From: an uncultured Candidatus Bathyarchaeia archaeon
GTDB taxonomy: Archaea; Thermoproteota; Bathyarchaeia; TCS64
Assembly (NCBI GenBank): GCA_964650675.1
Contig: CAZYUK010000001.1
Coordinates: forward strand, 1-34,394
Reading direction: 5' to 3'
DNA: 34,394 nt
The notes under the pieces are model-generated. The model was given only the letters and a program-made list of their open reading frames with translations. It was not told the DNA's origin and made no database searches. Both the position numbers and the translations under genes were made by a program. Numbering within the stretch: position 1 is the first letter of the stretch; every line of letters begins with the position of its first letter. Below, in pieces: positions 4,755 through 23,002 of this stretch.

Positions 4755-5018
4755 ATGAAGATTCTACTGTACTTCGATTGGACTGGGACCAGGAAGGAGC
4801 TGAAGGAGCATGACATCAAACTTCGGCAGTCGTGCAAGGACACCGGAGTCGAGTATAATGGGCTGTTCGGCTCGATGAACCAGAAGTGGAACTTCGTCTG
4901 GCTCTTCGACGCAAAGAGCTACGACCACTTCATGGAGATGACGCACGGGGTTCCGCGCCCAATGCAGATGACCCACTACATCACGGAGCTCCTCATACCG
5001 ATCAAGCTCCCGGAGTAG
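4755..5018 (+). CDS. hypothetical small protein (87 aa)
   Basis: Clean ORF with GGAGA-like SD 8 nt upstream and TATA-like GATAATGATATAT at about 4711. No recognisable motif. Confidence 0.45.
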   Translation: MKILLYFDWTGTRKELKEHDIKLRQSCKDTGVEYNGLFGSMNQKWNFVWLFDAKSYDHFMEMTHGVPRPMQMTHYITELLIPIKLPE

Positions 5019-7242: not shown

Positions 7243-7322
7243 GCGGCGGGTTCAGGTTAAAACTACCGTTGCCACAGACGCGAACGGGGAATCCTTTTAC
7301 GGTGCTGCGGTTAGATTAAACC

Positions 7323-7586
7323 ATGGCTGAAGCCTTGGTGAAGGTTGGAACCGTAGCCCATTACTTCGGGAAGATAGGGGTCGCCGTGGTCGAGGTCACC
7401 GCGCCCCTCAAGGTCGGAGACAGGATCACGGTGAGGGGGTTGAAGACGAGTCTAGACCAGACGGTCGAGTCGATGGAGGTCGACCACAAGAGCGTCACCA
7501 CCGCGAAGAAGGGGGATTCCATCGGACTGAAGGTCAACGGCTACGTCAGAGAAGGGGACGCGGTATACATATTAGCCGTCCAGTAA
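7323..7586 (+). CDS. small EF-Tu domain-II-like beta-barrel protein (87 aa)
   Basis: VGTVAHYFGKIGVAVVEVTAPLKVGDRITVRG...KGDSIGLKV...EGDAVY resembles the translation-factor domain II barrel. TATA-like CCTTTTAC lies about 27 nt upstream, which suggests a leaderless mRNA. Confidence 0.55.
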   Translation: MAEALVKVGTVAHYFGKIGVAVVEVTAPLKVGDRITVRGLKTSLDQTVESMEVDHKSVTTAKKGDSIGLKVNGYVREGDAVYILAVQ

Positions 7587-7596
7587 ACCTTTTAAA
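7585..7596 (+). promoter_or_regulatory. BRE/TATA-like box AAACCTTTTAAA for ilvB copy 1 operon
   Basis: Matches the box at 11053-11064. It lies 58 nt upstream of the conserved leader module. Confidence 0.4.
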
Positions 7597-7631
7597 CCCT
7601 GACTCCGCTCTTTCCCCTACACGCCTGTTCG

Positions 7632-7711
7632 GGGATAGACAAATGGGGTATCGTTTTGTCGAGGCCCCCGCTGAGGGGGAAGCGTAAATGGGGAATTGTT
7701 TTATTAGATAA
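7632..7711 (+). promoter_or_regulatory. conserved ilvB leader module, copy 1 (mini-ORFs 7643-7687 and 7688-7711; hairpin CCCCC 7665-7669 / GGGGG 7675-7679)
   Basis: Aligns with 11102-11180 at near-identical length: GGATAGACAAATGGGGTATCGTTTTGTCGAGGCCCCCGCTGAGGGGGAAGCGTAAATGGGGAATTGTTTTATTAGATAA. Confidence 0.6.
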
Positions 7712-7821
7712 ACCACTCAGGGCAAGGACCCGCTTCAGCGATTCATGGCTGGTAACGCCATTCAATGAAGGGTCGGTAGCTGAGGATATGCTCCGTGCTG
7801 TGAGCCGGGAGGCGACGCCGC

Positions 7822-9516
7822 ATGGTTGAGATGTCAGGGGCGGGTGCCCTCTGGACGGCTCTGAAGAAGGAGGGGGTCAGCCACGTCTTCGGGCTGCCCG
7901 GGGGCTCGGTGATCCCCCTGTGCGACGAGCTCCTGGGATTCGACCTCCGGTTCATCCTCGCCCGCCACGAGCAGGGCGCCGCCCACATGGCCGACGGCTA
8001 CGCGAGGGCGAGCGGCCGAGTAGGCGTCTGCCTCGCCACATCGGGGCCCGGCGCGACGAACCTGGTGACCGGGATCGCGACGGCGAACATGGACTCCTCC
8101 GCGGTAGTCGCCTTCACCGGGCAGGTGAATAGGGCCGTGATCGGCTCGGACGCCTTCCAGGAGGTGGACATAATCGGCTGCTCGGCTTCGGTCACGAAGT
8201 ACAATATGCAGGTGAGGAGGGCGTGTGAGATCCCCGCGGCGGTGAAGGCGGCCTTCCATATCGCGTCAACGGGCCGCAGGGGTGCCGTCCTCGTCGACCT
8301 GCCGAAGGACGTCACGATAGATGTCGAGGAGATGGTTTTCCCAGAGACCGTGCATTTCCGTGGCTACAAGGTGGAGCCAGCACCCGACCAGAGGGAGCTC
8401 GACGTAGCTGCGGCGCTGCTCGCGAAGGCGCAGAGGCCTGTGATCGTGGCCGGCGGAGGCGTCATCAACGCGGGCGCCTCGAGGCAGCTCGTCGCGCTGT
8501 CAGAGTACCTCATGGCGCCGACGGCGACCACCCTAATGGGTAAGGGAGCCTTCCCCGCCGATCACCCTCTCAGCCTAGGCATGTGCGGCATGCACGGCAC
8601 CGTGGCCGCCAACAACCTCGTACCCGAGGCGGATGTCCTTCTGATAGTCGGAGCCAGGCTCAGCGACAGGACCACCGGCGCCGTTAAGAGCTTCGCGCCG
8701 AACGCCAAGGTGATCCACGTCGACATCGATAAGACCGAGGTGGATAAGAACGTCGAGACGAGGATGAGGGTCGTCGGCGACGCCGGCCTCGCCCTCAGCG
8801 GGCTGCTGGAGCGGGTCGGGAAGCTGAGGTCCAAGGCGGGCAAGGACTCCATCTGGCATAGGAAATTGGCGGAGCTGCGTTGCGCCTCGAACGGGAAGAA
8901 CGGGAACGGTGCAAAGGAGGGCTACCTCAGGGCGCCTGATGTCATCAAAGCGCTCAGAAAGGTTCTGCCGAGGAACGCGATAGTCACCACGGAGGTGGGG
9001 CAGAACCAGATGTGGGCCGCCCTCCACTACGACGCCTATGAACCAAGAACCTTCTTCACGAGCGGCGGCCTGGGCACGATGGGCTGGGGCTTCCCCGCGG
9101 CGATAGGAGCCAAGACGGCCCGACCGGATGTGCCCGTCGTCGACATCGCAGGGGACGGGAGCTTCGGCATGACCGAGAACAGCATGGCGACGAGCGTCGA
9201 GGAGGAGATACCCGTCGTCGTCGTTGTGCTTAACAACCAGATGCTCGGCATGGTGGCGCAGTGGCAGCGTCTCTTCTACGACCACAGGTACTCCGCGGTG
9301 AATCTGAGGGGGAACCCAGACTTCATCAAGCTCGCTGAGGCGTACGGCGCGGAAGGCGTGAGGGTGGAGACCCTAGAGGGGTTCGAGGCCGCGGTCAGGA
9401 GGGCCATCGTCAGCGAGGTCTCCACGGTCATAGACGTCCCCATAGACCCGGAGGAGAACGTTTACCCCATCGTACCACCGGGGATGGGGCTCAAGGATGC
9501 GCTGCTGGAGGTGTGA
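7822..9516 (+). CDS. ilvB: acetolactate synthase (AHAS) large subunit, copy 1
   Basis: ThDP-enzyme motifs: HEQGAAHMADGYARASGRVGVCLATSGPGATNLVTG, LGMCGMHG, and the ThDP-binding GDGSFGMTENSMATSVEEEIPVVVVVLNN. Followed by the small subunit. ATG 7831 is an alternative start. Confidence 0.92.
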   Translation: MVEMSGAGALWTALKKEGVSHVFGLPGGSVIPLCDELLGFDLRFILARHEQGAAHMADGYARASGRVGVCLATSGPGATNLVTGIATANMDSSAVVAFTGQVNRAVIGSDAFQEVDIIGCSASVTKYNMQVRRACEIPAAVKAAFHIASTGRRGAVLVDLPKDVTIDVEEMVFPETVHFRGYKVEPAPDQRELDVAAALLAKAQRPVIVAGGGVINAGASRQLVALSEYLMAPTATTLMGKGAFPADHPLSLGMCGMHGTVAANNLVPEADVLLIVGARLSDRTTGAVKSFAPNAKVIHVDIDKTEVDKNVETRMRVVGDAGLALSGLLERVGKLRSKAGKDSIWHRKLAELRCASNGKNGNGAKEGYLRAPDVIKALRKVLPRNAIVTTEVGQNQMWAALHYDAYEPRTFFTSGGLGTMGWGFPAAIGAKTARPDVPVVDIAGDGSFGMTENSMATSVEEEIPVVVVVLNNQMLGMVAQWQRLFYDHRYSAVNLRGNPDFIKLAEAYGAEGVRVETLEGFEAAVRRAIVSEVSTVIDVPIDPEENVYPIVPPGMGLKDALLEV

Positions 9517-9519
9517 GGA

Positions 9520-10029
9520 ATGAGCGAGCTACACACGATAGCGTTCATAGTCGAGAACAAGCCCGGAGTCCTCTTCAACATCTCAAACATGTTCAGGAAG
9601 AAGAACTTCAACATCCACAGCATCAGCGTGGGCGCAATCCCGAACGCGGAGGTCGTCAGGATAACGATAGTGGTCCAAGCCGACGCCCGCGGCGTCTACC
9701 AGGTGGTTGAGCAGCTCGACAAGATGGTGGACGTCGTCGAGGTGAAGCGCCTTGACCCGATGAGGATCGTGAGGAGGGAGCTCGCTCTCGTGAAGCTCAC
9801 CACGGCGGACCCGTGGGCGAGGGAGGAGGCCCTCACCTGCGTCAACGACTACCACGGCCTCATCCTGAACATAGACCCGGACACCCTGATAGCTGAGGTG
9901 ACCGGGGACTCGGACGAGATAGACGCCTTCCTCGAGAAGGTGAAGCCGATAGGCATCATCGAGTTCTCGAGGACGGGCATCACTGCCCTGGAGAAGGGGC
10001 GGCTCAGGCTAGAGAGAGGTGAAACATGA
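9520..10029 (+). CDS. ilvN: acetolactate synthase small (regulatory) subunit, copy 1
   Basis: ACT-domain N-terminus [34 protein letters not shown]. At 169 aa it is a long-form small subunit. Confidence 0.9.
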
Positions 10030-11015
10030 TGGTGAAGGTGTACCACGACGAGGACATAGACGAGAAGGTCCTCAGAGGAAAGAAGGTTGCCGTCATAGGA
10101 TACGGCAGCCAGGGAAGGGCTCAGGCCCTAAACATGTACGACTCGGGTGTCGACGTCGTCGTCGGCCTCAGACCGGGCAGATCATGGGAGAAGGCGGAGG
10201 CGGACGGCCTCAAAGTGATGACCGTCATCGACGCCGCGCGGGCGGCGGACATCGTGTTGATGCTCGTCCCGGACATGGCGCAGCCCGTCGTCTATGGCGA
10301 GGAGGTGGCGCTGGCCCTCAGGAAGGGAAAGACCCTGCAGTTCGCCCATGGCTTCAACATCCACTTCGACGTGATCAAACCGCCGAAGGATGTCGATGTC
10401 ATCATGGTGGCGCCGAAGAGCCCGGGCCCGGAGATGCGCCGCCAGTACGAGGCGGGCTTCGGCGTACCTGCCCTCGTCGCCGTCCAGCAGGACGCCTCCG
10501 GGAAGGCGCTGAAGACCGCCCTTGCCATCGCGAAGGCCCTGGGATCTGGGCGAGCCGGCGTCATCGAGACCAGTTTCAAGAACGAGACGGAGAGCGACCT
10601 CTTCGGGGAGCAGGCCGTCCTATGCGGGGGCGTTGACCAGCTCATCAGGAGGGGCTTCAGGGTCCTCACGGAGGCGGGGTATCCGCCTGAGCTCGCCTAC
10701 TTCGAAGTCTGCAACGAGCTGAAGCTCATCGTCGACCTCATCTACAAGTCGGGTCTCGGCGGGATGTACAGGGCGGTCTCAGACACGGCGAAGTATGGTG
10801 GCATGATAGTTGGGCCGAAGATCGTCGACGACCGCGTCGAGGAGAACATGAGGAGGGCGCTGAAGGAGGTCCAGAGCGGCGAGTTCGCCAAGCAGTGGAT
10901 CGCGGAATACGCGGCCGGCTCAAAGGAGTTCAGGCGCCTCATGGACGAGTGCGACGCCCTCGAGATCGAGAGGGTCGGCAAGCAGGTCCGGAGGATGTCT
11001 GGGCTCGAAAAATAG
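10026..11015 (+). CDS. ilvC: ketol-acid reductoisomerase
   Basis: Rossmann motif [31 protein letters not shown], then FAHGFNIHF and [16 protein letters not shown]. Start overlaps the ilvN stop (ATGA). Confidence 0.93.
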
Positions 11016-11052
11016 CCCTCATCCGGCCGACCACTTATCAGGCTCGCCTCAC

Positions 11053-11064
11053 AAACCTTTTTAT
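11053..11064 (+). promoter_or_regulatory. BRE/TATA-like box AAACCTTTTTAT for ilvB copy 2 operon
   Basis: Paralogous to 7585-7596 and 59 nt upstream of the conserved leader module. The T5 run could also serve as an ilvC terminator. Confidence 0.4.
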
Positions 11065-11101
11065 GCGGAGTCACGGTGGTTTAGGTTACAGCCATTTAGG
11101 A

Positions 11102-11180
11102 AGGATGGATAATGGGGTATTGCTTTGTCGAGCCCCCTAGAAAGGGGGAGAGATGAATGGGGAATCGTATTCTCAGCTGA
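11102..11180 (+). promoter_or_regulatory. conserved ilvB leader module, copy 2 (mini-ORFs 11112-11156 and 11157-11180; hairpin CCCCC 11133-11137 / GGGGG 11144-11148)
   Basis: AGGATGGATAATGGGGTATTGCTTTGTCGAGCCCCCTAGAAAGGGGGAGAGATGAATGGGGAATCGTATTCTCAGCTGA aligns with 7632-7711. Confidence 0.6.
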
Positions 11181-11249
11181 CAGATTCCCGCAAGTGACCA
11201 AGGTCTCCGGATCATCCGGATTCGACGTTGATGTGCTCTGCGATGGGGG

Positions 11250-12944
11250 GTGGTTTCCATGCCTGAGATGACCGGCGCAGAGGCCTACGTGAAGGCCCTT
11301 GAGATAGAGGGCGTCGAGTACATCTTCGGCGTCACGGGGGCGGCCATAATGCCAATCTGCGACGAGCTCCTCAAGTCGAACATCCGGTATGTCGGGGGCG
11401 CACACGAGCAGGGATCCGCTCACATGGCGGACGGCTACGCCAGGGCGTCTGGGAGGGTCGGCGTCGTCCAGGCGACGAGCGGCCCGGGCGCCACAAACAT
11501 CGTCACCGGGATGGCAACGGCTCAGCTAGACTCCTCACCCGTCGTCGCCTTCACGGGACAGGTGCCAAAGGGCATGGTTGGCACGGACGCCTTCCAGGAG
11601 GTCGACATCATCGGAGTCACCGCCTCCGTGACCAAGCACAATATACAGGTGATGGAGGCGGCTGAGGTGCCACACGCCGTGAAGGCGGCGTTCTACATCG
11701 CCTCGACGGGGAGGAGGGGCGCCGTGCTCGTAGACCTGCCGAAGGACGTTCAGACCGACAAGGCCGAGATGGTCTTCCCCGAGAAGGTAGAGTTCCGCGG
11801 CTACCACCCGAACATCGAGCCGAGCCCGAACGAGATCCACTGGGCCGCTACGCTGCTCGCCAAGGCGAGGAGGCCAGTGATCATAGCGGGCGGCGGGGTC
11901 ATAGCCTCCGGGGCGTCGCAGGAGCTGGTGAGCCTCGCCGAGATGATCCAGGCGCCCGTCGCGCATAGCCTCATGGGGAAGGGCTCCATGCCGAGCGACC
12001 ATCCCCTAAGCCTCGGCCTCTGCGGCATGCATGGCAGGTACGAGGCGAATAAGATCGTGCCAGAGGCGGACGTTTTGCTCATTGTGGGCGCAAGGCTCAG
12101 CGACAGAACTACCGGATCCATCGACGGCTTCGCCCCAAACGCCAGGATAATCCACATCGACTTGGACAGAAGCGAGATAGACAAGAACGTCGATTCCATA
12201 ACCCGCGTCGTGGGAGACGCCAAGCTCGCCCTTCGCGGGATAATGGAGAAGATCGCTCTCCAGAAGATCAATGGCAATAGGGATGAGACGATCATCAAAA
12301 AGATCGAGGAGTTCCGAGCTCAAACATCTGAGCTGAGGTCGGATTCGCCTCTACCCGGCCCAGAGGTGATTAGGGCGATAAGGAGGGCGATGCCCAGGGA
12401 TAGCATAGCAGTCACAGACGTAGGCCAGCACCAGATGTGGGCAGCTCAGCACTACGACGTCTACGGGCCAGGAACATTCTTCACATCCGGCGGACTTGGC
12501 ACGATGGGGTGGGGGACGCCGGCCGCCATAGGCGCCAAAGCCGCGAGGGGAGACCTGCCTGTGCTAAACATATCCGGCGACGGCAGCTTCGCCATGACAG
12601 AGAACAACCTCGCCATAGCTGTAGACGAAGGCTTCCCGATCACTATCGTCATCTTGAACAACCATATGCTCGGGATGGTTGCCCAGTGGCAGCGCCTCTT
12701 CTACGATCACAGGTACTCCGCCGTCAACAGACCGATCTACCCGGACTTCGCCAAGTTAGCAGAGTCCTACGGCGCTGAAGGCGTCTACGTAGACTCGATC
12801 CAGGGACTCGAGGCGGCGCTCAGAAGGGCAGTGGGAAGCGACTACACCACAGTCATAGACGTCCCCATAGACCCTGAGGAGAACGTGTACCCAATGGTCC
12901 CGCCCGGCATGGGGCTCAAGGACATCCTGCTCGGAGATGACTGA
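11250..12944 (+). CDS. ilvB: acetolactate synthase (AHAS) large subunit, copy 2
   Basis: Colinear with copy 1 across the full length, with the same ThDP motifs and a near-identical C-terminus VIDVPIDPEENVYPMVPPGMGLKD. The start is GTG 11250; ATG 11259, preceded by GGTGG, is equally plausible. Confidence 0.9.
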   Translation: MVSMPEMTGAEAYVKALEIEGVEYIFGVTGAAIMPICDELLKSNIRYVGGAHEQGSAHMADGYARASGRVGVVQATSGPGATNIVTGMATAQLDSSPVVAFTGQVPKGMVGTDAFQEVDIIGVTASVTKHNIQVMEAAEVPHAVKAAFYIASTGRRGAVLVDLPKDVQTDKAEMVFPEKVEFRGYHPNIEPSPNEIHWAATLLAKARRPVIIAGGGVIASGASQELVSLAEMIQAPVAHSLMGKGSMPSDHPLSLGLCGMHGRYEANKIVPEADVLLIVGARLSDRTTGSIDGFAPNARIIHIDLDRSEIDKNVDSITRVVGDAKLALRGIMEKIALQKINGNRDETIIKKIEEFRAQTSELRSDSPLPGPEVIRAIRRAMPRDSIAVTDVGQHQMWAAQHYDVYGPGTFFTSGGLGTMGWGTPAAIGAKAARGDLPVLNISGDGSFAMTENNLAIAVDEGFPITIVILNNHMLGMVAQWQRLFYDHRYSAVNRPIYPDFAKLAESYGAEGVYVDSIQGLEAALRRAVGSDYTTVIDVPIDPEENVYPMVPPGMGLKDILLGDD

Positions 12945-13440
12945 GATGACGCTTCAGGTGGTATCCTTCCTCGTAGAGAACAAGCCGGGCGTCCTCTTCA
13001 AGGTCTCCAACCTCTTCAGGCGCCGCGGCTACAACATCCAGGGGATAACCGTGGGCACGATAGAGGGTACAGGCCTCAGCCGCATGACGGTCACGGTCGA
13101 GGCGGACAGCCGCGTCCTCAACCAGATACTTGAGCAGCTCGACAAGATGGTGGAGGTTGTAAAGGTCAAGAGGCTCGATCCCATCCGCGCCGTGAGCAGG
13201 GAGCTCCTCCTCGTGAAGCTGAGGACGGCGGACCCCATGGCGAGGCAGGAGGTCCTTGGCTACATCAACGCCTACCACGGCCTCATCCTCGATGTCGAGC
13301 CGGACATTCTGATAGCCGAGGTTACGGGGGCACCTGAGGAGATAGATGAGTTTCTCAGGGACATCAGGCCCATAGGCGTCGAGGAGATGAGCCGCACAGG
13401 CGCTACCGCCCTCGAGAGAGGAACGATGAAACTCGCCTGA
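12937..13440 (+). CDS. ilvN: acetolactate synthase small (regulatory) subunit, copy 2
   Basis: [33 protein letters not shown] is colinear with copy 1. Alternative start ATG 12946. Confidence 0.88.
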   Translation: MTEMTLQVVSFLVENKPGVLFKVSNLFRRRGYNIQGITVGTIEGTGLSRMTVTVEADSRVLNQILEQLDKMVEVVKVKRLDPIRAVSRELLLVKLRTADPMARQEVLGYINAYHGLILDVEPDILIAEVTGAPEEIDEFLRDIRPIGVEEMSRTGATALERGTMKLA

Positions 13441-13546: not shown

Positions 13547-14452
13547 CTACCTTCCGAGGTCAACACCTAAGCTGCGTACCCGATTCCTGAGGGTGACCTC
13601 CGAGGTCCCAGCCGCGTGGGCCACGTCCTTCTGCGTCCTCTTCTCCTTGTTCTCGAAGCAGGCTAGATACAGCGCGGCGGCGGCTACGCCCCCAGGATAT
13701 TTCCCGGCCAGCCCCTTGTGCTTCCTCGCCGACACGAGGATATCGACCGCACGCTGCTCGGTTCTCCTCGCGACGCCCAGCTTGGATGCTATGTTGGTGA
13801 TGAACTTCGCCGAGTCATCTACGGGCATCCTGAGGTCGAGCTCCTTCACGAGGATCCTGTATACCCTGGCCACCTCGAGGTATTTCCTCGTGCTTACCTT
13901 GGCTATGTTCCTCAGGGAGCGGGGAATCCCGTTCAGGCGGCAGACGGCGTATATGCTCGCGGCGACGAAGGCCTCTATGGACCTGCCCCTGATCAGGTCC
14001 TTGTCAAGGGCCTTACGGTAGATCTGGGCCGCCTGCGACTTGGCCGTCTCTGAGAGATGGATCAGCGTCGCCACCCTATCCACCTCCGGCATGGCGATAC
14101 TTAGATTCCGAGCCTGGGTGTCGTTGATCTTTGACTTGTGATCGTATCTCCTGAGCCTGTTCATCTTGCCCAGGGTTGCCACATCGAGGGGCTTGCCGGC
14201 ACCGTCCTTCAGGCCCCTGAAGTTCGTCGAAAGTCCCCTGTCAAACAACATGGGGGTTATCTGCGCGCCCGTCCTTGCCCTGTCGTTCCTCTCGGTCAGT
14301 GTGAAGGCCCTCCACTCCGGACCTGTGTCAAGCACGCCTTCGGAGACGACGAAGCCGCATTCGGCGCAGACCTCCTCGCCTGCCTCTGGATCATTAATCA
14401 GATTCGTCCCACCGCAGTTGGAGCAGACCAATGTCCCAACTCCACGATCCAA
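13547..14452 (-). CDS. tfb: transcription initiation factor IIB (TFB)
   Basis: N-terminal zinc ribbon CSNCGG...CAECG, B-reader/linker region PEWRAF...ERNDRARTG, and two cyclin-like repeats. Confidence 0.93.
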   Translation of the reverse strand: MDRGVGTLVCSNCGGTNLINDPEAGEEVCAECGFVVSEGVLDTGPEWRAFTLTERNDRARTGAQITPMLFDRGLSTNFRGLKDGAGKPLDVATLGKMNRLRRYDHKSKINDTQARNLSIAMPEVDRVATLIHLSETAKSQAAQIYRKALDKDLIRGRSIEAFVAASIYAVCRLNGIPRSLRNIAKVSTRKYLEVARVYRILVKELDLRMPVDDSAKFITNIASKLGVARRTEQRAVDILVSARKHKGLAGKYPGGVAAAALYLACFENKEKRTQKDVAHAAGTSEVTLRNRVRSLGVDLGR

Positions 14453-17091: not shown

Positions 17092-17310
17092 GATAATTTC
17101 GTAGGGGACCGGCCTCATGCTAATAAAGGTCAACCCCTTGAGCCGCTTTCCCTGCTAGGCATTTAACATCATCCTCGAGGCACGGAGATACGGAGGGGCA
17201 GGAGAAGAGGCTGTCATTGGCTACAGGAAAATTAATGGAGCCCGAAAGCTCTATAAGTGCTCAAAAGATGCCTACGCCTATTAGGCTCAATTACCTAGCC
17301 GGTGTGGACG

Positions 17311-20139
17311 ATGGAGAGTAAACAGTGGCACGCGAAAAGCGTTGAAGATACGCTGAGGGACCTTAACGCCAACGAGAACGGCTTGACCTCGGAAGAGGTA
17401 GAGGCTAGGAGGAAGACCTACGGCTATAACGAGTTGAAGGAGAAGAAGCGGAGAACCGCGCTGCAGATGTTCCTCGGGGAATTCAAGGACATCTTCATCC
17501 TCCTGCTCCTCGCCGCCACGGTGTTATCCGCCGGAATAGGATATTACGAATCTATAGGGACGGGGAAGGGTTTCCTCGAGACCTACACGGATACCATAAC
17601 AATAACGATCATAGTTGTCCTAGTCGCGGTATCCGGTTTCGTCCAAGAGTACCGGGCTGAGAAGGCGATCGAGGCCTTGAAGAAGCTGACGGCGCCAAAG
17701 GCACGCGTCATACGGGACGGCAGGGAGACGATGATACCTGCCAGGGAGGTCGTGCCAGGTGACATGTTGGTCCTCGAGGCCGGTGACACAGTCCCCGCTG
17801 ATGCACGAGTCTTACAGGCTATCGAGTTGAAATCGGATGAGGCCATCCTGACCGGCGAATCCACGCCGGTGAACAAGTCCTTGGATATCGTTAGCCCCGA
17901 CGCGGCCGTCGCCGAGAGGAAAGACATGCTCTTCATGGCAACCCACACGATCTATGGCAGGGGCAAGGCCATCGTCACCTCCATCGGGATGGGCACGGAG
18001 TTCGGGAGAATCGCGGAACTTGTGCAGGAAGCTGAGGAGGAGGAGACCCCGCTTCAGAGGAAGCTGGACAGGTTTGCTAAAAAAATAGCCTACGGGGTAA
18101 TTGCTCTCGCGGCGGTTATTTTCGTCCTCGAACTCTTCGCTGAAGGATTAGGAATAAAGGCGTTTATCGACGCCTTCATGATTTCGATATCCCTGGCCAT
18201 ATCGGTCGTGCCCGAAGGGCTACCAGCGATAGTGACCATCACACTCGCCCTAGGGGCACGGGAGTTTGCGAGACGCCACGCCATCATAAGAAAATTATCT
18301 TCCACCGAGAGCCTTGGAGCCACCACCGTAATCTGTTCCGATAAGACAGGGACCTTAACTAAAGGGGAAATGACTGTACGACGAATATACGATGGGAAAT
18401 TCGTCGATGTCACCGGAGTAGGCTACGAGCCCAAAGGCGAGTTCAAGGTAGGTAACGAACCCATTAACCCCCTAGAAACCCCTGACCTTTCCCTGACGCT
18501 CACCATAGGCAGCCTATGCAATAATGCTAAACTGGAAAAGGACAATGGTAGCTGGCATATCATCGGTGACCCAACGGAGGGGGCCTTAATCGTCACCGCG
18601 GTCAAGGCCGGATTGGAATTAGGCGAACTCGAGAAACGGTATCCCCGCATCGGCGAAATTCCCTTTACCTCCGAAAAGAAACGGATGACCACGATCCATT
18701 CGAGTTCGGACGGAGGCAAAATCGCCTTCATGAAGGGGGCTCCGGAAATCGTTCTAGAGCTTTCCACCAACATCTTCGAGAATGGCGAAGAGAGGCAACT
18801 GACCGGATCTAAACGTGGGGAGCTCCTCGATATCAACGAGAAGTTGGCGTCCGAAGCCCTTCGTCTTCTCGGGATGGCCTACAAGAAACTGCCGAGCGGT
18901 CTAAAAGAATTCCGGGAGGAAAACATCGAGAAGGGCATGGTCTTCGTCGGTTTGGAGGGTATGATCGATCCGCCTCGAGAGGAGGCGATAGAGGCGAATA
19001 GAAAGTGTGAGCAGGCCGGAATAAAGACGGTCATGATCACTGGAGACCATAAACTAACCGCCACAGCCGTCGCCAAGGAAATTGGCATGATGAAGGAAGA
19101 CAGCACAGTCCTGACCGGTGTCGAGTTAGACCAGATGAGCGATGAGGAGTTTCAGGAGAAGGTGGAGAAGGTAGCTGTGTACGCACGTGTGTCGCCTGAA
19201 CACAAACTGCGCATAGTGGGGGCGTGGAAGAAGAGGGGGCAGATCGTCGCGATGACCGGCGACGGGGTGAACGACGCCCCGGCCGTCAAGAGCGCCGACA
19301 TAGGCATATCCATGGGCATCTCCGGCACAGACGTGACGCGGGAGGCCTCGGACATGGTTTTGACGGATGACAACTTCGCCACGATCGTCAGGGCGGTCGA
19401 GGAGGGCAGGGTCATCTACGACAACATCCGCAAATATGCGCGATTCCTCATATCATGCAACTTCGACGAGGTCCTCGTCATCGGCTCGTTCGCGCTGTTG
19501 GCGGGGCTCGCCGGGGCCGGAGGGGAGGTGCTCTTCCCCGTGCCCCTGCTGCCGGCAATGCTGCTATGGATAAACTTGGTCACGGACGGCGCGCCCGCCG
19601 TTTCCCTCGCACTCGACCCTCCGGAGGAGGATGTGATGAAACGCCGTCCGCGCAAATCCGGAGAGGGCATACTGCACGGCATGACCGCATTCATAATAGT
19701 ATCGTTTATTCTGCAGTCTGCAGGTACAATACTCCTGTTCGCCTTAAATTACTACATATTCCCGACTCATCCCTGGGGCTGGCCGAACGGGCCATTCATT
19801 GAGGCAAATCGGATACTCACCTTAGACGAAGCCAGGACAACCGCCTTCGTCCAGGCAACCCTGTTCGAGCTGTTCGTCGTCTGGAACTGTCGATCGGAGA
19901 AACGCAGTGTTTGGAGGATGGGGCGGGACGCCTTCAAAAACAAATGGTTCGTCATAGCCGAAATTGTGTCCATAGGCACCACCTTGGCTATACCCTACAT
20001 CCCGATAACTGCGTCCATGTTCCACCTAGTTCCACTAACCTCACTCGATCTAGCGCAGGTCATATTGGTGGCAAGCTGGGCCCTGTTCTTCGTGCTTCCG
20101 GAGAATCTCATGGACAAGAAGATTTGGCGCTGGGAATAG
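17311..20139 (+). CDS. P-type cation-transporting ATPase, P2A (Ca2+-ATPase-like)
   Basis: CSDKTGTLT, TGDHKLTA and TGDGVNDAPAVK. TM4 has VVPEGLPAIVT and TM6 has WINLVTDGAPAVSLALDPPEEDVM, as in SERCA-type pumps. The ORF opens at GTG 17302; ATG 17311 is preferred. Confidence 0.88.
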   Translation: MESKQWHAKSVEDTLRDLNANENGLTSEEVEARRKTYGYNELKEKKRRTALQMFLGEFKDIFILLLLAATVLSAGIGYYESIGTGKGFLETYTDTITITIIVVLVAVSGFVQEYRAEKAIEALKKLTAPKARVIRDGRETMIPAREVVPGDMLVLEAGDTVPADARVLQAIELKSDEAILTGESTPVNKSLDIVSPDAAVAERKDMLFMATHTIYGRGKAIVTSIGMGTEFGRIAELVQEAEEEETPLQRKLDRFAKKIAYGVIALAAVIFVLELFAEGLGIKAFIDAFMISISLAISVVPEGLPAIVTITLALGAREFARRHAIIRKLSSTESLGATTVICSDKTGTLTKGEMTVRRIYDGKFVDVTGVGYEPKGEFKVGNEPINPLETPDLSLTLTIGSLCNNAKLEKDNGSWHIIGDPTEGALIVTAVKAGLELGELEKRYPRIGEIPFTSEKKRMTTIHSSSDGGKIAFMKGAPEIVLELSTNIFENGEERQLTGSKRGELLDINEKLASEALRLLGMAYKKLPSGLKEFREENIEKGMVFVGLEGMIDPPREEAIEANRKCEQAGIKTVMITGDHKLTATAVAKEIGMMKEDSTVLTGVELDQMSDEEFQEKVEKVAVYARVSPEHKLRIVGAWKKRGQIVAMTGDGVNDAPAVKSADIGISMGISGTDVTREASDMVLTDDNFATIVRAVEEGRVIYDNIRKYARFLISCNFDEVLVIGSFALLAGLAGAGGEVLFPVPLLPAMLLWINLVTDGAPAVSLALDPPEEDVMKRRPRKSGEGILHGMTAFIIVSFILQSAGTILLFALNYYIFPTHPWGWPNGPFIEANRILTLDEARTTAFVQATLFELFVVWNCRSEKRSVWRMGRDAFKNKWFVIAEIVSIGTTLAIPYIPITASMFHLVPLTSLDLAQVILVASWALFFVLPENLMDKKIWRWE

Positions 20140-20386: not shown

Positions 20387-23002
20387 TCACCTCTCGCCGA
20401 CGTACTTACAGGCCTCAATCCAGATCGTTGCGATGACCGAGGCAGCGACCACAGTGGCCCAGTCAATCAAGTTCAGCGCCGAGACCTTGACTAGGCCCTG
20501 CAGGAAGGGGACGTAGATGACGGCCAGCAGGAGACCTATGGCGGAGAGTGCCCAGAGGACCATCACCCTGTTAGAGAGAATTCCGCGTTTTAGCAATGGC
20601 TCCTTCTCCGACCGCCTCACGAAGGCGAGCAGTATGTGGCTAACGATCCAAGCCGAGAATGCGACAGTTTGAGCGTAGACGAGGTCACCACTCCGGTAAT
20701 ACACGGTTAGGTAGCAGAAGCTTACAGCCACGAATAGGCTTATGGCGCTGGCGAAGATCACCATGAGGGTCCCTCTGTCTAAGAACTTCGCTGAGGGGTC
20801 CCTGGGCGGCCTGGTCATCAAGTCCGGCTCGAATCCCTCGGCGACGAAGCCGCTCGACGCGGCCAAGTCCATGAACATCTCGAGCAATATGATCTGTATC
20901 GGGGCGAATGGCAGAGGCACGTTGAGAATTATTGGGAGAGTGAATATCAAAACAAGTGCCACCTTAACGGCGAGGTAGTACTTGACCCCCTTCCGGAGAT
21001 TGTCAAATATCTTCCGCCCCTCACGAACCGCGCTGCCTATGCTGACGAAGTTGTCGTCTGTGAGAACGATGTCCGCGGCCTCCTTCGCCGCATCCGTCCC
21101 CCTCACACCCATGGCGATCCCGATCGCTGCCTCCTTCAGGGCTGGCGCGTCGTTCACGCCGTCCCCAGTGACGGCCACGACCTGATTGGCCTCCTTCAGG
21201 ATCCTCACTATCCGGAGCTTGTGCTCTGGCGTGATTCGCGCGAATACGCTCGTCGTCTTCAGGGCCTCACCCAGCTCGGCATCGCTCATCTCGGATACCC
21301 TTGGCCCAATTAGAACCGATTCTGACTCGATGCCGACCTGGGCAGCTACCGCCTTCGCCGTCTCGGGATGGTCCCCCGTGAGCATGATCACCCGGATCCC
21401 CGCGCCTCTGCACATCTTAACCACATCGGAGACCTCCTTCCTGGGTGGATCGATGAAGCCGATGAACCCTACGAAGATCATTTCGCTCACCTGCTCCTCG
21501 TCGATGTCTGCATTTCGCACATCCTTGTAGGCGACCCCGATCGACCGTTCGCCCATCTGGGTTATCCTGTCAAGCGCGTCATCCGCCTGAGCCCGATCCG
21601 ATGATCTTAAGGCTACTACCTTCCTACCCATCAGAATCTTCGACGACTTGGCCAACACGGCCTCGGGCGCTCCGCTGGTGTAGACGCGAAGCCTGCCCCC
21701 CTCATCGTAGAAGTAGGACGCGGTCTTGCTCCTCAAGTCGAAGCTGAGCTCACTCACAAGGGTTCTCTTCGCCAACTCATCCAGGTTTAGGCCAGACTTC
21801 TCCGCTGAGTCGACCAGGGCGGCGCCCATCGGGTTCACGCCGCGGAGCCGTTCGCTTAAGAGCGTCGTTTGAGCCCTTGTTGCCATAATGGCCATCTCAA
21901 GCTTCTCTCGCATTGATGGTTCCGTGGTCAACTCTGATAGCTTGCCATCCGAGTATACGTGACCCAGCTTCATTGTGCTCTCGGTTATGGTGCCCGTCTT
22001 GTCTGTGCATATTACTGTGACGCTGCCCAGCGTCTCCGAAGCCCTCAGGCGCTTGACCAGGGCGCCACGTCTGCTGAGGGCATACGTACCCACAGCCAGC
22101 ACCATGGTGATTATGATTGGCAGCTCCTCTGGGATGACAGCGAAGGACAGCGACAGGCCGGTGAGGATCATCGTCTGCAGCGGCTGGCCCCTCAAGTAGC
22201 CGAGGGCTGGGATCGAGACGCTGAAGAACAGCGCAATCCACACCAATGTCCCGGAGAGCTGCTCCATCGCCTCCTGGAGCGGGGTCTCCTCCTCCTCGGC
22301 CTCCTCTGTCAGCGTCGCTATGTGTCCAAGCTCCGTGTTGCGGCCGGTGGCGGTGACGATCGCGACGCCTTCGCCCTGGACGATGAGGGTCCCGGACAGA
22401 ACCATGTTTGTCAGGTCCATGATCTGAGCCCCGCTGGGTAATGTGGCTTCCACGGTTTTCTGCACGGGGAATGACTCACCCGTCAGACTCGACTCATCTA
22501 GTTGGAGGCCATAAGATCTGTACAACCTGGAGTCGGCTGGGATCCTCTCACCTACGCTGAGGGGTAGGACATCGCCGGGGACAAGCTCGGCTGAGTCGAC
22601 CTCGCTGACCTTACCATCCCTGAGCACAAGCGGCATCGGCTCGGTCAGCTCCCTCAGCGACTCTATCCCCCGCTCAGCCTTCCACTCGTTGTAGACCTCG
22701 CTTAAGACGAGGACGGCGATCACCGTGAAGATCGTCGCGGCGTCGAGTATGCTGCCCCAGATGCTGTAGAGTACACCGACGCCTATCAGCAGGAGGATCA
22801 TTGGCTCTCTGGACTCTTCCTTTAGCGCTGACCAGAATGTCTCCTTCTCCGCCTCGCCCAGTGCATTCTTACCATACTTCTCGAGCCTATTTTTCGCCTC
22901 AGGCGACGTGAGACCCTTATCCGGGTCGGTTCCAAGCTCCCTAATCAAATCATCAATTCCTATGGTAGCAGCTCTAGCGGTCTCTGAGGTTTCTGTCATC
23001 AC
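20387..23002 (-). CDS. P-type cation-transporting ATPase (P2-like, divergent ion-site motifs)
   Basis: CTDKTGTIT, LTGDHPETA and TGDGVNDAPALKEA. TM4 is VIPEELPIIIT and TM6 is LLEMFMDLAASSGF, so neither PEGLP nor NLVTDG is present. An AT-rich TATA region lies at 23044-23060 upstream. Confidence 0.88.
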   Translation of the reverse strand: MMTETSETARAATIGIDDLIRELGTDPDKGLTSPEAKNRLEKYGKNALGEAEKETFWSALKEESREPMILLLIGVGVLYSIWGSILDAATIFTVIAVLVLSEVYNEWKAERGIESLRELTEPMPLVLRDGKVSEVDSAELVPGDVLPLSVGERIPADSRLYRSYGLQLDESSLTGESFPVQKTVEATLPSGAQIMDLTNMVLSGTLIVQGEGVAIVTATGRNTELGHIATLTEEAEEEETPLQEAMEQLSGTLVWIALFFSVSIPALGYLRGQPLQTMILTGLSLSFAVIPEELPIIITMVLAVGTYALSRRGALVKRLRASETLGSVTVICTDKTGTITESTMKLGHVYSDGKLSELTTEPSMREKLEMAIMATRAQTTLLSERLRGVNPMGAALVDSAEKSGLNLDELAKRTLVSELSFDLRSKTASYFYDEGGRLRVYTSGAPEAVLAKSSKILMGRKVVALRSSDRAQADDALDRITQMGERSIGVAYKDVRNADIDEEQVSEMIFVGFIGFIDPPRKEVSDVVKMCRGAGIRVIMLTGDHPETAKAVAAQVGIESESVLIGPRVSEMSDAELGEALKTTSVFARITPEHKLRIVRILKEANQVVAVTGDGVNDAPALKEAAIGIAMGVRGTDAAKEAADIVLTDDNFVSIGSAVREGRKIFDNLRKGVKYYLAVKVALVLIFTLPIILNVPLPFAPIQIILLEMFMDLAASSGFVAEGFEPDLMTRPPRDPSAKFLDRGTLMVIFASAISLFVAVSFCYLTVYYRSGDLVYAQTVAFSAWIVSHILLAFVRRSEKEPLLKRGILSNRVMVLWALSAIGLLLAVIYVPFLQGLVKVSALNLIDWATVVAASVIATIWIEACKYVGER

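Follow-up and report, generated by a model that had tools for sequence, protein, structure and literature searches.

Slow decoding in the ribosomal A site drives +1 frameshifting in prfB, in antizyme (OAZ), in Ty and in hungry-codon frameshifting (PMC5009743). A 2016 review wrote of starvation-specific trans-frame proteins that 'no examples are known' (PMC5009743). Bacterial ilvB leaders, in turn, rely on transcription attenuation driven by a uORF (upstream open reading frame; PMC10272879), and the sole archaeal frameshift demonstrated as of 2021 is the −1 shift in fucA1 of Saccharolobus solfataricus (PMC8211752). Here we describe a leader module that occurs twice in the window, by which we mean the whole 34,394-nucleotide (nt) stretch of contig CAZYUK010000001.1 from an uncultured Candidatus Bathyarchaeia archaeon, once before each of two ilvB genes for acetolactate synthase. 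The module core consists of a Shine-Dalgarno (SD) sequence, ATG GGG NAU YGY UUU, one branched-chain amino acid (BCAA) codon and an early stop. We tentatively propose that the module is a starvation-sensing programmed +1 ribosomal frameshift leader coupled to the translation of ilvB, although we hold this reading with somewhat less than even confidence.

The module resembles prfB in that a short open reading frame (ORF), ORF0, which has a start codon and soon runs into a stop, is combined with a functional +1 frame that lacks a start of its own. As in prfB, we propose, a slow-to-decode A-site codon drives the shift and expression is set by how much of a decoding factor is available. Both have a G-rich SD-like stretch immediately 5′ (AGGGGGUAUCUUUGAC in Escherichia coli prfB, AUGGGGUAUCGUUUUGUC here). 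The slow codon, however, is a sense codon for Ile, Val or Leu here and a stop codon in prfB, and the P-site codon is UUU instead of CUU, with poorer re-pairing. The SD-like element, whose role here is putative, lies 2–6 nt away and not at exactly 3 nt as in prfB, ORF0 has 6–14 codons, the host is an archaeon, and in the case of ilvB the product is a coupling leader ORF and not an enzyme. Antizyme offers a second parallel, since a metabolite-sensing +1 shift would here too close a biosynthetic feedback loop, and in some leaders the A-site codon is followed within a few nt by an RNA structure. Antizyme, however, senses polyamines directly, at a stop codon and in eukaryotes, whereas the proposed signal here is aminoacyl-tRNA; its product is an inhibitor, and the feedback is of opposite sign.

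Like ivbL, ilvL, leuL and the uORF of Corynebacterium ilvB-II (PMC10272879), the module is a short leader with pathway-product codons 5′ of BCAA genes. As in the bacterial ilv leaders it is multivalent before acetolactate synthase, with Val followed by Ile/Leu, and it may likewise read out charged tRNA. The bacterial ilv and leu leaders nevertheless use alternative hairpins, transcription termination and runs of regulatory codons, whereas each mini-ORF here has one sensor codon, a terminator is lacking and the phase link to the downstream frame is strictly +1. The proposed sequence of a limiting aminoacyl-tRNA, an empty A site and a shifting P-site tRNA is that of hungry-codon frameshifting in starved E. 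coli (Gallant and co-workers, reviewed in PMC5009743), which is known solely as an error or in engineered reporters. With fucA1 the element would share the expression of a split archaeal gene by recoding, although the shift in fucA1 is by −1, takes place on A-AAA-AAT in the middle of the gene and does not sense amino acids. By its structure the element would qualify as a +1 recoding site, with a function that we predict. It lacks two defining features of a transcription attenuator, having neither a run of regulatory codons nor a terminator/antiterminator pair.

Leader modules before ilvB

Copy 1 of the module (ATGGGGTATCGTTTTGTCGAGGCCCCCGCTGAGGGGGAAGCGTAA directly followed by ATGGGGAATTGTTTTATTAGATAA) lies at 7643–7711 and copy 2 (ATGGGGTATTGCTTTGTCGAGCCCCCTAGAAAGGGGGAGAGATGA directly followed by ATGGGGAATCGTATTCTCAGCTGA) at 11112–11180. 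Both consist of a 45-nt and a 24-nt mini-ORF, the stop codon of the first abutting the ATG of the second, and a AAACCTTTTWWA box is located 58–59 nt 5′ of each module (Table 1). An earlier note on this DNA had described these modules, boxes and distances, and the window sequence confirms them. The two IlvB proteins are 64% identical, in line with the 'about two-thirds' estimated there by eye, and their leaders align well over the module and little elsewhere. The 15-mer ATGGGGWATYGYWTT is present in four exact copies in the window. Allowing up to two mismatches gave five matches compared to 0.36 expected, and none of 100 shuffles reached five. The fifth match, at 7284–7298, was rejected as a module; it is a promoter-like AATCCTTTTAC box.

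We gathered ilvB leaders from relatives by IlvB protein identity alone, so that the sample is unbiased for the motif. The nearest genomic relatives of the IlvB proteins are found in Bathyarchaeia metagenome-assembled genomes (72% and 70% identity), and metagenomic relatives are up to 94% identical. The module was present in all 18 distinct related ilvB leaders, which are from Bathyarchaeia. Twelve of these have two back-to-back modules, at a spacing of 45, 42 or 39 nt, and six have one. The module of mini-ORF 1a is conserved in related loci L001, L081, L083, L091, L212, L216 and L220, and the variant seen in mini-ORF 2b is kept in the copy-2 leaders of L081, L091, L212 and L084. In each mini-ORF, an SD-like box is found 6–12 nt 5′ of an invariant ATG, and an in-frame stop is always present, consistent with the earlier suggestion that the mini-ORFs are translated. 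Judged by these leaders, the module is real and widely conserved in Bathyarchaeia, as expected of the conserved cis-regulatory leader that the earlier note had postulated; absence from orthologous leaders, which the note had named as evidence to the contrary, was not what we found.

The ~230 nt before each ilvB had been taken as non-coding. In all 18 leaders, however, the +1 frame remains open from the module onward and first meets a stop between −23 and +10 relative to the ilvB start, giving leader ORFs of 36–77 codons. The stop is at +5 in 11 of the 18 (TGA inside ATG-NNT-GAG). Frames 0 and +2 close 25–191 nt 5′ of ilvB; for copy 1 of the window this distance is 113–150 nt, and the probability of the +1 frame being open, P(open), is 0.085 in shuffles. 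Across the leaders, P(open) ranged from 0.015 to 0.2 (dinucleotide shuffles). For the 11 diverged and fully open leaders the product, multiplied by hand, is ~3e-13, a value that is overstated because ilvB leaders are homologous, though their downstream sequences no longer align. The +1 ORFs have no conserved start, and four of them (L090, L091-1, L212-1 and L220) have no ATG, GTG or TTG over their whole length. By its reading frames, the leader before ilvB is coding in the +1 frame, and in both window copies the +1 ORF spans it. The argument that neutral DNA should no longer align is then no proof of a structured RNA, as most of the conservation would be a coding or recoding signal.

In two leaders the modules are fused into a single frame-0 ORF (L091, 4825–4890, MGYRFIRPRMAECTGYCFIKK and stop; L220, 2811–2879, MGYRFIHPRMEGRYMGYRFIRR and stop), and in L091 the second ATG is replaced by ACG. 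Frame 0 is therefore the frame read across the modules. Each of the fused ORFs holds two sensor sites. L090 has an extra upstream mini-ORF at 4826–4869 (MSCLLFVSLEDEF and stop), which is Leu/Val-rich, uses another frame and ends in a stop that shares bases with the module ATG (UAAUG). It resembles a classical leader peptide stacked on the module.

The C5/G5 hairpin that had been noticed inside the first mini-ORF folds in both copies (Table 1). In each of the 12 dual leaders the first mini-ORF folds a hairpin 3′ of codon 6 (z −0.4 to −4.1), beginning 2–4 nt after codon 6 in most of them and at or within codon 6 in L091-1 and L220. The stem occurs in eight complementary variants: CCCCC/GGGGG, CCCCCU/AGGGGG, GCCGCC/GGUGGC, CCCC/GGGG, GCCUCC/GGAGGC, UCCCU/AGGGA, UAUCCG/CGGAUG and UCCAUC/GAUGGA. 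We report stems per sequence; a MAFFT alignment of the dual modules leaves the non-homologous hairpin arms out of register. The 3′ arm doubles as the SD for mini-ORF 2, 7–10 nt before its ATG (in copy 1, GAGGGGG, 9 nt before the ATG at 7688). On the basis of these predicted folds the hairpin is real. It more likely makes mini-ORF 2 depend on the translation of mini-ORF 1 than serves as a general stimulator of shifting, because its 3′ arm is SD 2 and because 111 leaders of the synthase genes described below have no comparable structure.

Whole-leader folds of the two window leaders were no better than those of shuffled sequences (z −0.64 and −0.09), and in 10 leaders no significant structure masks the SD or ATG of ilvB. 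The leaders have a single hairpin, and neither a U-run terminator nor a second, mutually exclusive hairpin was detected in them. A stem between positions 10 and 20, seen as C-G, U-G and U-A in three ilvB leaders, was rejected: C10 is found with A20 in 24 of 66 synthase leaders. A search with Rfam 15 at gathering score gave no match in the window. At E ≤ 10, the region 7500–11400 matched unrelated families alone (best E ~1.5), and there was no relevant match in 10 related loci. A literature search on archaeal BCAA leaders and on leuA/cimA frameshifting found nothing pertinent. The earlier note had known of no established ilv leader in archaea, and we likewise found none in Rfam or the literature searched.

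The module at LeuA/CimA-family synthase genes

The module is not specific to ilvB, as its first description had implied. The same core heads a LeuA/CimA-family synthase gene in at least 128 further loci, and the 5′ end of this gene is its main home. In other Bathyarchaeia, a LeuA/CimA-family synthase gene precedes ilvB, with the module at the synthase 5′ end, ~45–50 nt 3′ of a TATA-like box. Our sample comprises 16 genomic and 112 unique metagenomic synthase leaders (at least 120 metagenomic loci); all metagenomic counts below are counts among the matches listed. The metagenome scan required the module core and DTTLRDG and left the spacer and positions 7, 10–12, 16 and 18 free.

With this gap free in the search, the mini-ORF ATG lay 40, 43, 46, 49, 52, 55, 58, 61 or 85 nt before the D of the catalytic motif DTTLRDGEQ, which equals 1 modulo 3 in 128 of 128 leaders and puts the synthase frame at +1 to the mini-ORF in each. 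No canonical start was found in the stretch from the preceding in-frame stop to the catalytic motif in 53 of the 112 listed metagenomic leaders, nor before the motif in seven of 10 genomic Bathyarchaeia synthase loci. In the remaining leaders, in-frame starts are scattered and their positions are not conserved. We built a position-wise profile from 69 synthase leaders of equal length, and in these, initiation signals are conserved for frame 0 only (RAGGGA at −12 to −7 and AA at −2/−1). An A/T-rich block is present at −51 to −39 from the mini-ORF ATG. All 175 module matches in the 1.65 Mb examined fall before a synthase gene or ilvB.

Codon 6 of the mini-ORF is Ile in 108 of the 112 listed synthase leaders (ATC in 59 and ATT in 49, with no ATA and no Val) and Leu (UUA) in the other four. 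Val at codon 6 is confined to the first module of dual ilvB leaders, where it was found in seven of 12. In these leaders the first module has Val or Ile, and the second has Ile or Ile-Leu. Each mini-ORF has one or two BCAA codons, fixed at codon 6 and sometimes 7, and its other codons specify Gly, Tyr/Asn/Asp, Cys/Arg and Phe. Acetolactate synthase serves Ile, Val and Leu, and citramalate synthase serves Ile alone. In the leaders compared, codon 6 tracks the pathway, with Ile for the putative citramalate synthase (CimA) and Leu for the LeuA-like paralogue. The synthases of leaders with UUU_UUA (four among the matches listed; examples are L155, 3530–3607, minus strand, and L171, 3043–3123) are 55–59% identical to a motif-less, leuB-adjacent paralogue compared to 43–50% identity to the Ile group. 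The anatomy of ORFs and frames, its conservation and the match of codon to pathway can be read directly from these loci.

The module-less LeuA/CimA paralogue has an ordinary ATG and follows a leuB-like gene in L007 (8199), L012 (9157), L013 (9159) and L016 (9159). No leu genes were found next to the L155 synthase. The longest canonical ORF at that locus (GTG 3513) begins 3′ of the catalytic DTTLRDGEQ.

Versions of the module were also identified in methanogens (Methanothrix L025, L064 and L074; Methanoculleus L041 and L058), ~40–85 nt before DTTLRDGEQ, with the mini-ORFs MRDCFIW, MSDRFIC and MNAWDRFIW, each followed by a stop (ATGAGGGATTGTTTTATTTGGTGA is an example of the sequence). Their +1 frame has its own ATG or GTG at +5, except in L058, which comes from the cultured isolate Methanoculleus frigidifontis FWC-SCC1. 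These are probably related versions of the putative frameshift leader.

The ilvB leaders look like relics of a synthase 5′ end. The L014 leader retains a decayed synthase N-terminus, KIFDTILKDGEQ, and the copy 2 text past module 2b (RFPQVTKV...DVLCDGG) resembles the synthase N-terminus RFPEKIRVFDTTLRDGEQ.

Proposed frameshifting at codon 6 and alternative explanations

In the 69 profiled leaders, the +1 frame shows its 3-periodicity from position 19 onward. Although the search left position 16 free and a +1 reading would make it a Leu wobble, this position is an invariant A. Position 18 is C or U at ~50/50, which is synonymous in frame 0 only. This pattern suggests that the ribosome reads frame 0 up to and including codon 6 and the +1 frame from the next base, and therefore that the switch takes place at UUU (codon 5) and codon 6. 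UUU followed by AUY, GUC or UUA is conserved, and re-pairing of tRNA(Phe) would involve two of three positions save at UUU_UUA. UUU rather than UUC is retained despite a GC content of 57–60% in the window leader.

We infer that the frame changes by ribosomal slippage, that this is the shift site, that the shift depends on aminoacyl-tRNA and that it is coupled to ilvB. A ribosome would start at the SD-led mini-ORF ATG and read M-G-(Y/N/D)-(C/R)-F in frame 0, bringing UUU into the P site with one branched-chain codon awaiting decoding in the A site. The sensed codon would be GUC (Val) in module a, AUU (Ile) in 1b, AUU CUC (Ile-Leu) in 2b and AUY (Ile) in the synthase leaders. With charged tRNA plentiful, this codon would be read and translation would stop a few codons on, without a downstream product. 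In dual leaders the ribosome could then re-start at the abutting second ATG, whose SD would be freed from the hairpin, for a second test with a different amino acid. With charged tRNA scarce, the A site would remain empty, peptidyl-tRNA(Phe) would shift by +1 and the +1 frame would be translated. At synthase loci this frame would yield the LeuA/CimA-family enzyme itself. In the window it would yield the leader ORF of 52–62 codons, which stops on the ilvB start and may act by termination-reinitiation coupling. The earlier note had offered a translation-coupled attenuator, a structured RNA or a paired operator as possible explanations. The first comes closest, except that coupling appears to operate via a change of reading frame and that there is no terminator. 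The note's observation is confirmed and its interpretation partly supported.

Several points weigh against this proposal. If tRNA(Phe) slips by +1 on UUU_A/G, just two of its three positions pair again, and the conserved module 2b (11157–11180) has AUU_CUC and no UUU. Positions 7 and 10 vary like wobbles of the +1 frame (Gly-Ile-Ala/Val-Leu), AU at positions 8–9 is invariant and codon 3 is never NAC, none of which a shift on UUU explains. This pattern hints at SD-like pairing, an earlier GGG_N shift or initiation at a near-cognate AUH. As estimated from duplex energies, the module has modest SD-like complementarity to the 16S tail (−4.7 to −10.7 kcal/mol, compared to a background of −3.5 ± 2.6). 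No downstream stimulatory structure was detected in 111 listed synthase leaders (mean z −0.5), and 59 of the 112 listed leaders hold an in-frame ATG, GTG or TTG, mostly in what is presumed to be 5′ untranslated region, from which translation might begin. In Methanothrix and Methanoculleus the +1 frame has an ATG or GTG of its own at +5, so that these versions do not depend on frameshifting. One sensor codon is a weak signal compared to classical leaders, and a ribosome that has shifted at module a must read Ile-Val-Leu in the +1 frame of module b while starved. Since ilvB has its own SD and no significant masking structure, its dependence on coupling stays a proposal. Finally, our distinction between CimA and LeuA draws on paralogue similarity and neighbourhood because the two families were not separable by NCBIfam. 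Re-pairing, module 2b, positions 7–10, the methanogen starts and the ilvB SD in particular keep other explanations alive and hold our confidence down.

Translational bypass, in which the ribosome would hop from UUU to a conserved +1-frame UUY at positions 26–28, was rejected, as the ilvB leaders have no landing codon; such a hop is possible in the synthase leaders.

The alternative that fares best, and that we nevertheless regard as unlikely, dispenses with frameshifting: the mini-ORF would be a regulatory uORF and the +1 frame would start independently at a near-cognate codon, either AUH at positions 8–10 or scattered UUG and GUG. Position 10 is C, U or A and never G, as for a deliberately weak AUH start, and positions 5–16 vary like the +1 codons Gly-Ile-Ala/Val-Leu. 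The ATG or GTG at +5 in the +1 frame of the methanogen homologues is in keeping with this, as is the +1-frame UUG that GUC at codon 6 creates 7 nt after GGGG (7656 and 11125). However, the sole SD-like box is placed for the frame-0 ATG, and AUH lies 1 nt after GGGG and 15–21 nt from the real SD. Neither the invariance of A16, despite its free Leu wobble, nor the lack of a canonical start in four ilvB leader ORFs and in 53 of the 112 listed synthase genes would be expected. In addition, stalling at codon 6 would place the ribosome over AUH and thus cause repression under starvation, which is the wrong sign.

Distinctly less probable is a +1 shift right after initiation, on the G run (AUG GGG N to GGN), at a fixed ratio or constitutively. 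This would give M-G-I-(A/V)-L-S... and make the rest of the mini-ORF a by-product. It would account for positions 7 and 10 varying in a +1-like manner; all Bathyarchaeia modules have ATGGGG unchanged, the N-terminus so produced, MGIALS, matches M-R-G-I-A-L-F of Methanothrix, and the slip would be perfect when position 7 is G (L008 and L010, the latter from the Candidatus Bathyarchaeum tardum M17C-01 enrichment). Yet Methanoculleus, Methanothrix and copy 2 of L084 have no G run and keep the rest of the module, and the candidate hungry codon would be NAU, which does not encode a BCAA. Such a shift also leaves UUU, A16, C/U at position 18 and the match of Ile, Leu and Val to the pathway unexplained.

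We consider classical attenuation improbable. Here, stalling at the BCAA codon would remodel hairpins (G4/C5/G5/G4) and lead to termination or SD exposure, with the +1 frame as a relic. Either the upstream GGGG or the downstream G5 can serve as partner for the C5 tract, the SD of mini-ORF 2 lies in the hairpin, and uORF attenuation is common for bacterial ilvB (PMC10272879). There is, however, no U-tract terminator and no significant fold of whole leaders or of the ilvB start, 111 listed synthase leaders have no significant structure, and a terminator has no space in synthase loci, where mini-ORF and enzyme frame overlap. Nor would a relic ORF be expected to have remained open and in register up to a stop on the ilvB start across 18 leaders that can no longer be aligned.

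A DNA operator, with the direct repeat ATGGGGWATYGYWTT as a paired site for a regulator (e.g. of Lrp/TrmB type) acting as a roadblock, is very improbable even though the repeat is on the same strand, 42–45 bp apart and near the promoter, and relatives have a TrmB-family gene and TFB close to the operon, since the motif is ~25–95 nt 3′ of the transcription start site (predicted ~20–25 nt before the mini-ORF ATG in the window) in a module that begins ~50 nt after the TATA-like box, is present as a single copy at most loci, always has ATG, in-frame stop and SD, varies only at codon-like positions with strict phase to the downstream gene, and is repeated at a spacing that is a multiple of 3 (45, 42 or 39) and not of the helical repeat.

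Starvation-sensing frameshifting is thus the explanation that we favour, with due caution. RNA-level matching of archaeal amino-acid biosynthesis to supply is a largely unknown field. If the proposal is true, and we put it at slightly less than even odds, the module would be the first natural hungry-codon +1 frameshift amino-acid sensor, and a LeuA/CimA synthase without a start codon of its own and, by way of a coupled leader ORF, two acetolactate synthases would be produced in Bathyarchaeia solely when a ribosome slips because the matching tRNA is uncharged. It would join leader peptides that read charged tRNA with regulatory +1 frameshifting (as in release factor 2 and antizyme), a combination that is new. 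It would also supply the example called missing in the 2016 review of frameshifting (PMC5009743) and be, for a cellular archaeal gene, the first programmed +1 frameshift to be shown. The claim is directly testable because a related module is found in the cultured M. frigidifontis FWC-SCC1. Whatever the mechanism, gene callers find no synthase start in about half of the Bathyarchaeia leaders examined (among the matches listed). Without a callable start, the synthase will be truncated, mis-started or called a pseudogene, and estimates of Ile/Leu pathway completeness will be wrong for Bathyarchaeia, an abundant sediment lineage.

Features and surroundings of the two operons

The window contains an ilvB-ilvN-ilvC operon (copy 1) and an ilvB-ilvN operon (copy 2), whose features are listed in Table 1.

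Table 1. Leader elements and genes of the two acetolactate synthase operons, in window coordinates
Feature	Position	Strand	Remarks
BRE (B recognition element)/TATA-like box, ilvB1 leader promoter, AAACCTTTTAAA	7585..7596	+	From sequence; same box before copy 2 and the L081, L083 and L084 leaders
SD-like GGGGAT	7631..7636	+	6 nt 5′ of the mini-ORF 1a ATG; corresponds to the RAGGGA consensus of synthase leaders
Mini-ORF 1a, MGYRFVEAPAEGEA, stop	7643..7687	+	Proposed shift site UUU GUC (Phe-Val), 7655-7660
Hairpin CCCCC-GCUGA-GGGGG inside mini-ORF 1a	7665..7679	+	−13.4 kcal/mol, z −1.6
Mini-ORF 1b, MGNCFIR, stop	7688..7711	+	Proposed shift site UUU AUU (Phe-Ile), 7700-7705
+1-frame leader ORF, 62 codons	7644..7829	+	Runs through both modules; TGA 7827-7829, 5 nt inside ilvB1
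ilvB copy 1, acetolactate synthase large subunit	7822..9516	+	TIGR00118, 720 bits
ilvN, then ilvC	9520-10029, 10026-11015	+	3′ of ilvB copy 1
BRE/TATA-like box, ilvB2 leader promoter, AAACCTTTTTAT	11053..11064	+	From sequence
Mini-ORF 2a, MGYCFVEPPRKGER, stop	11112..11156	+	Proposed shift site UUU GUC, 11124-11129
Hairpin CCCCCU/AGGGGG in mini-ORF 2a	11133-11138/11143-11148	+	−15.8 kcal/mol, z −4.05
Mini-ORF 2b, MGNRILS, stop	11157..11180	+	Variant: AUU CUC (Ile-Leu), 11169-11174, replaces UUU AUY
+1-frame leader ORF, 52 codons	11113..11271	+	TAA directly 5′; TGA 11269-11271 in the ilvB2 start region
ilvB copy 2	11259..12944	+	Homologous start ATG 11259; longest ORF from GTG 11250
ilvN	12937-13440	+	3′ of ilvB copy 2

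The promoter-like AATCCTTTTAC box lies ~30 nt 5′ of a small ORF (7323–7586, 87 amino acids) that is kept at the same place in L081 and has weak similarity to domain 2 of EF-Tu/EF-1alpha. Directly after the second acetolactate synthase operon is a TFB (TFIIB) gene (13547–14452, minus strand). In L081 and L087, the synteny with TFB continues with a large TrmB-domain gene. Further along in the window, two genes for P-type cation ATPases are convergent (17302–20139, plus strand, and 20387–23002, minus strand), and a P-type ATPase also adjoins the synthase gene in L155.

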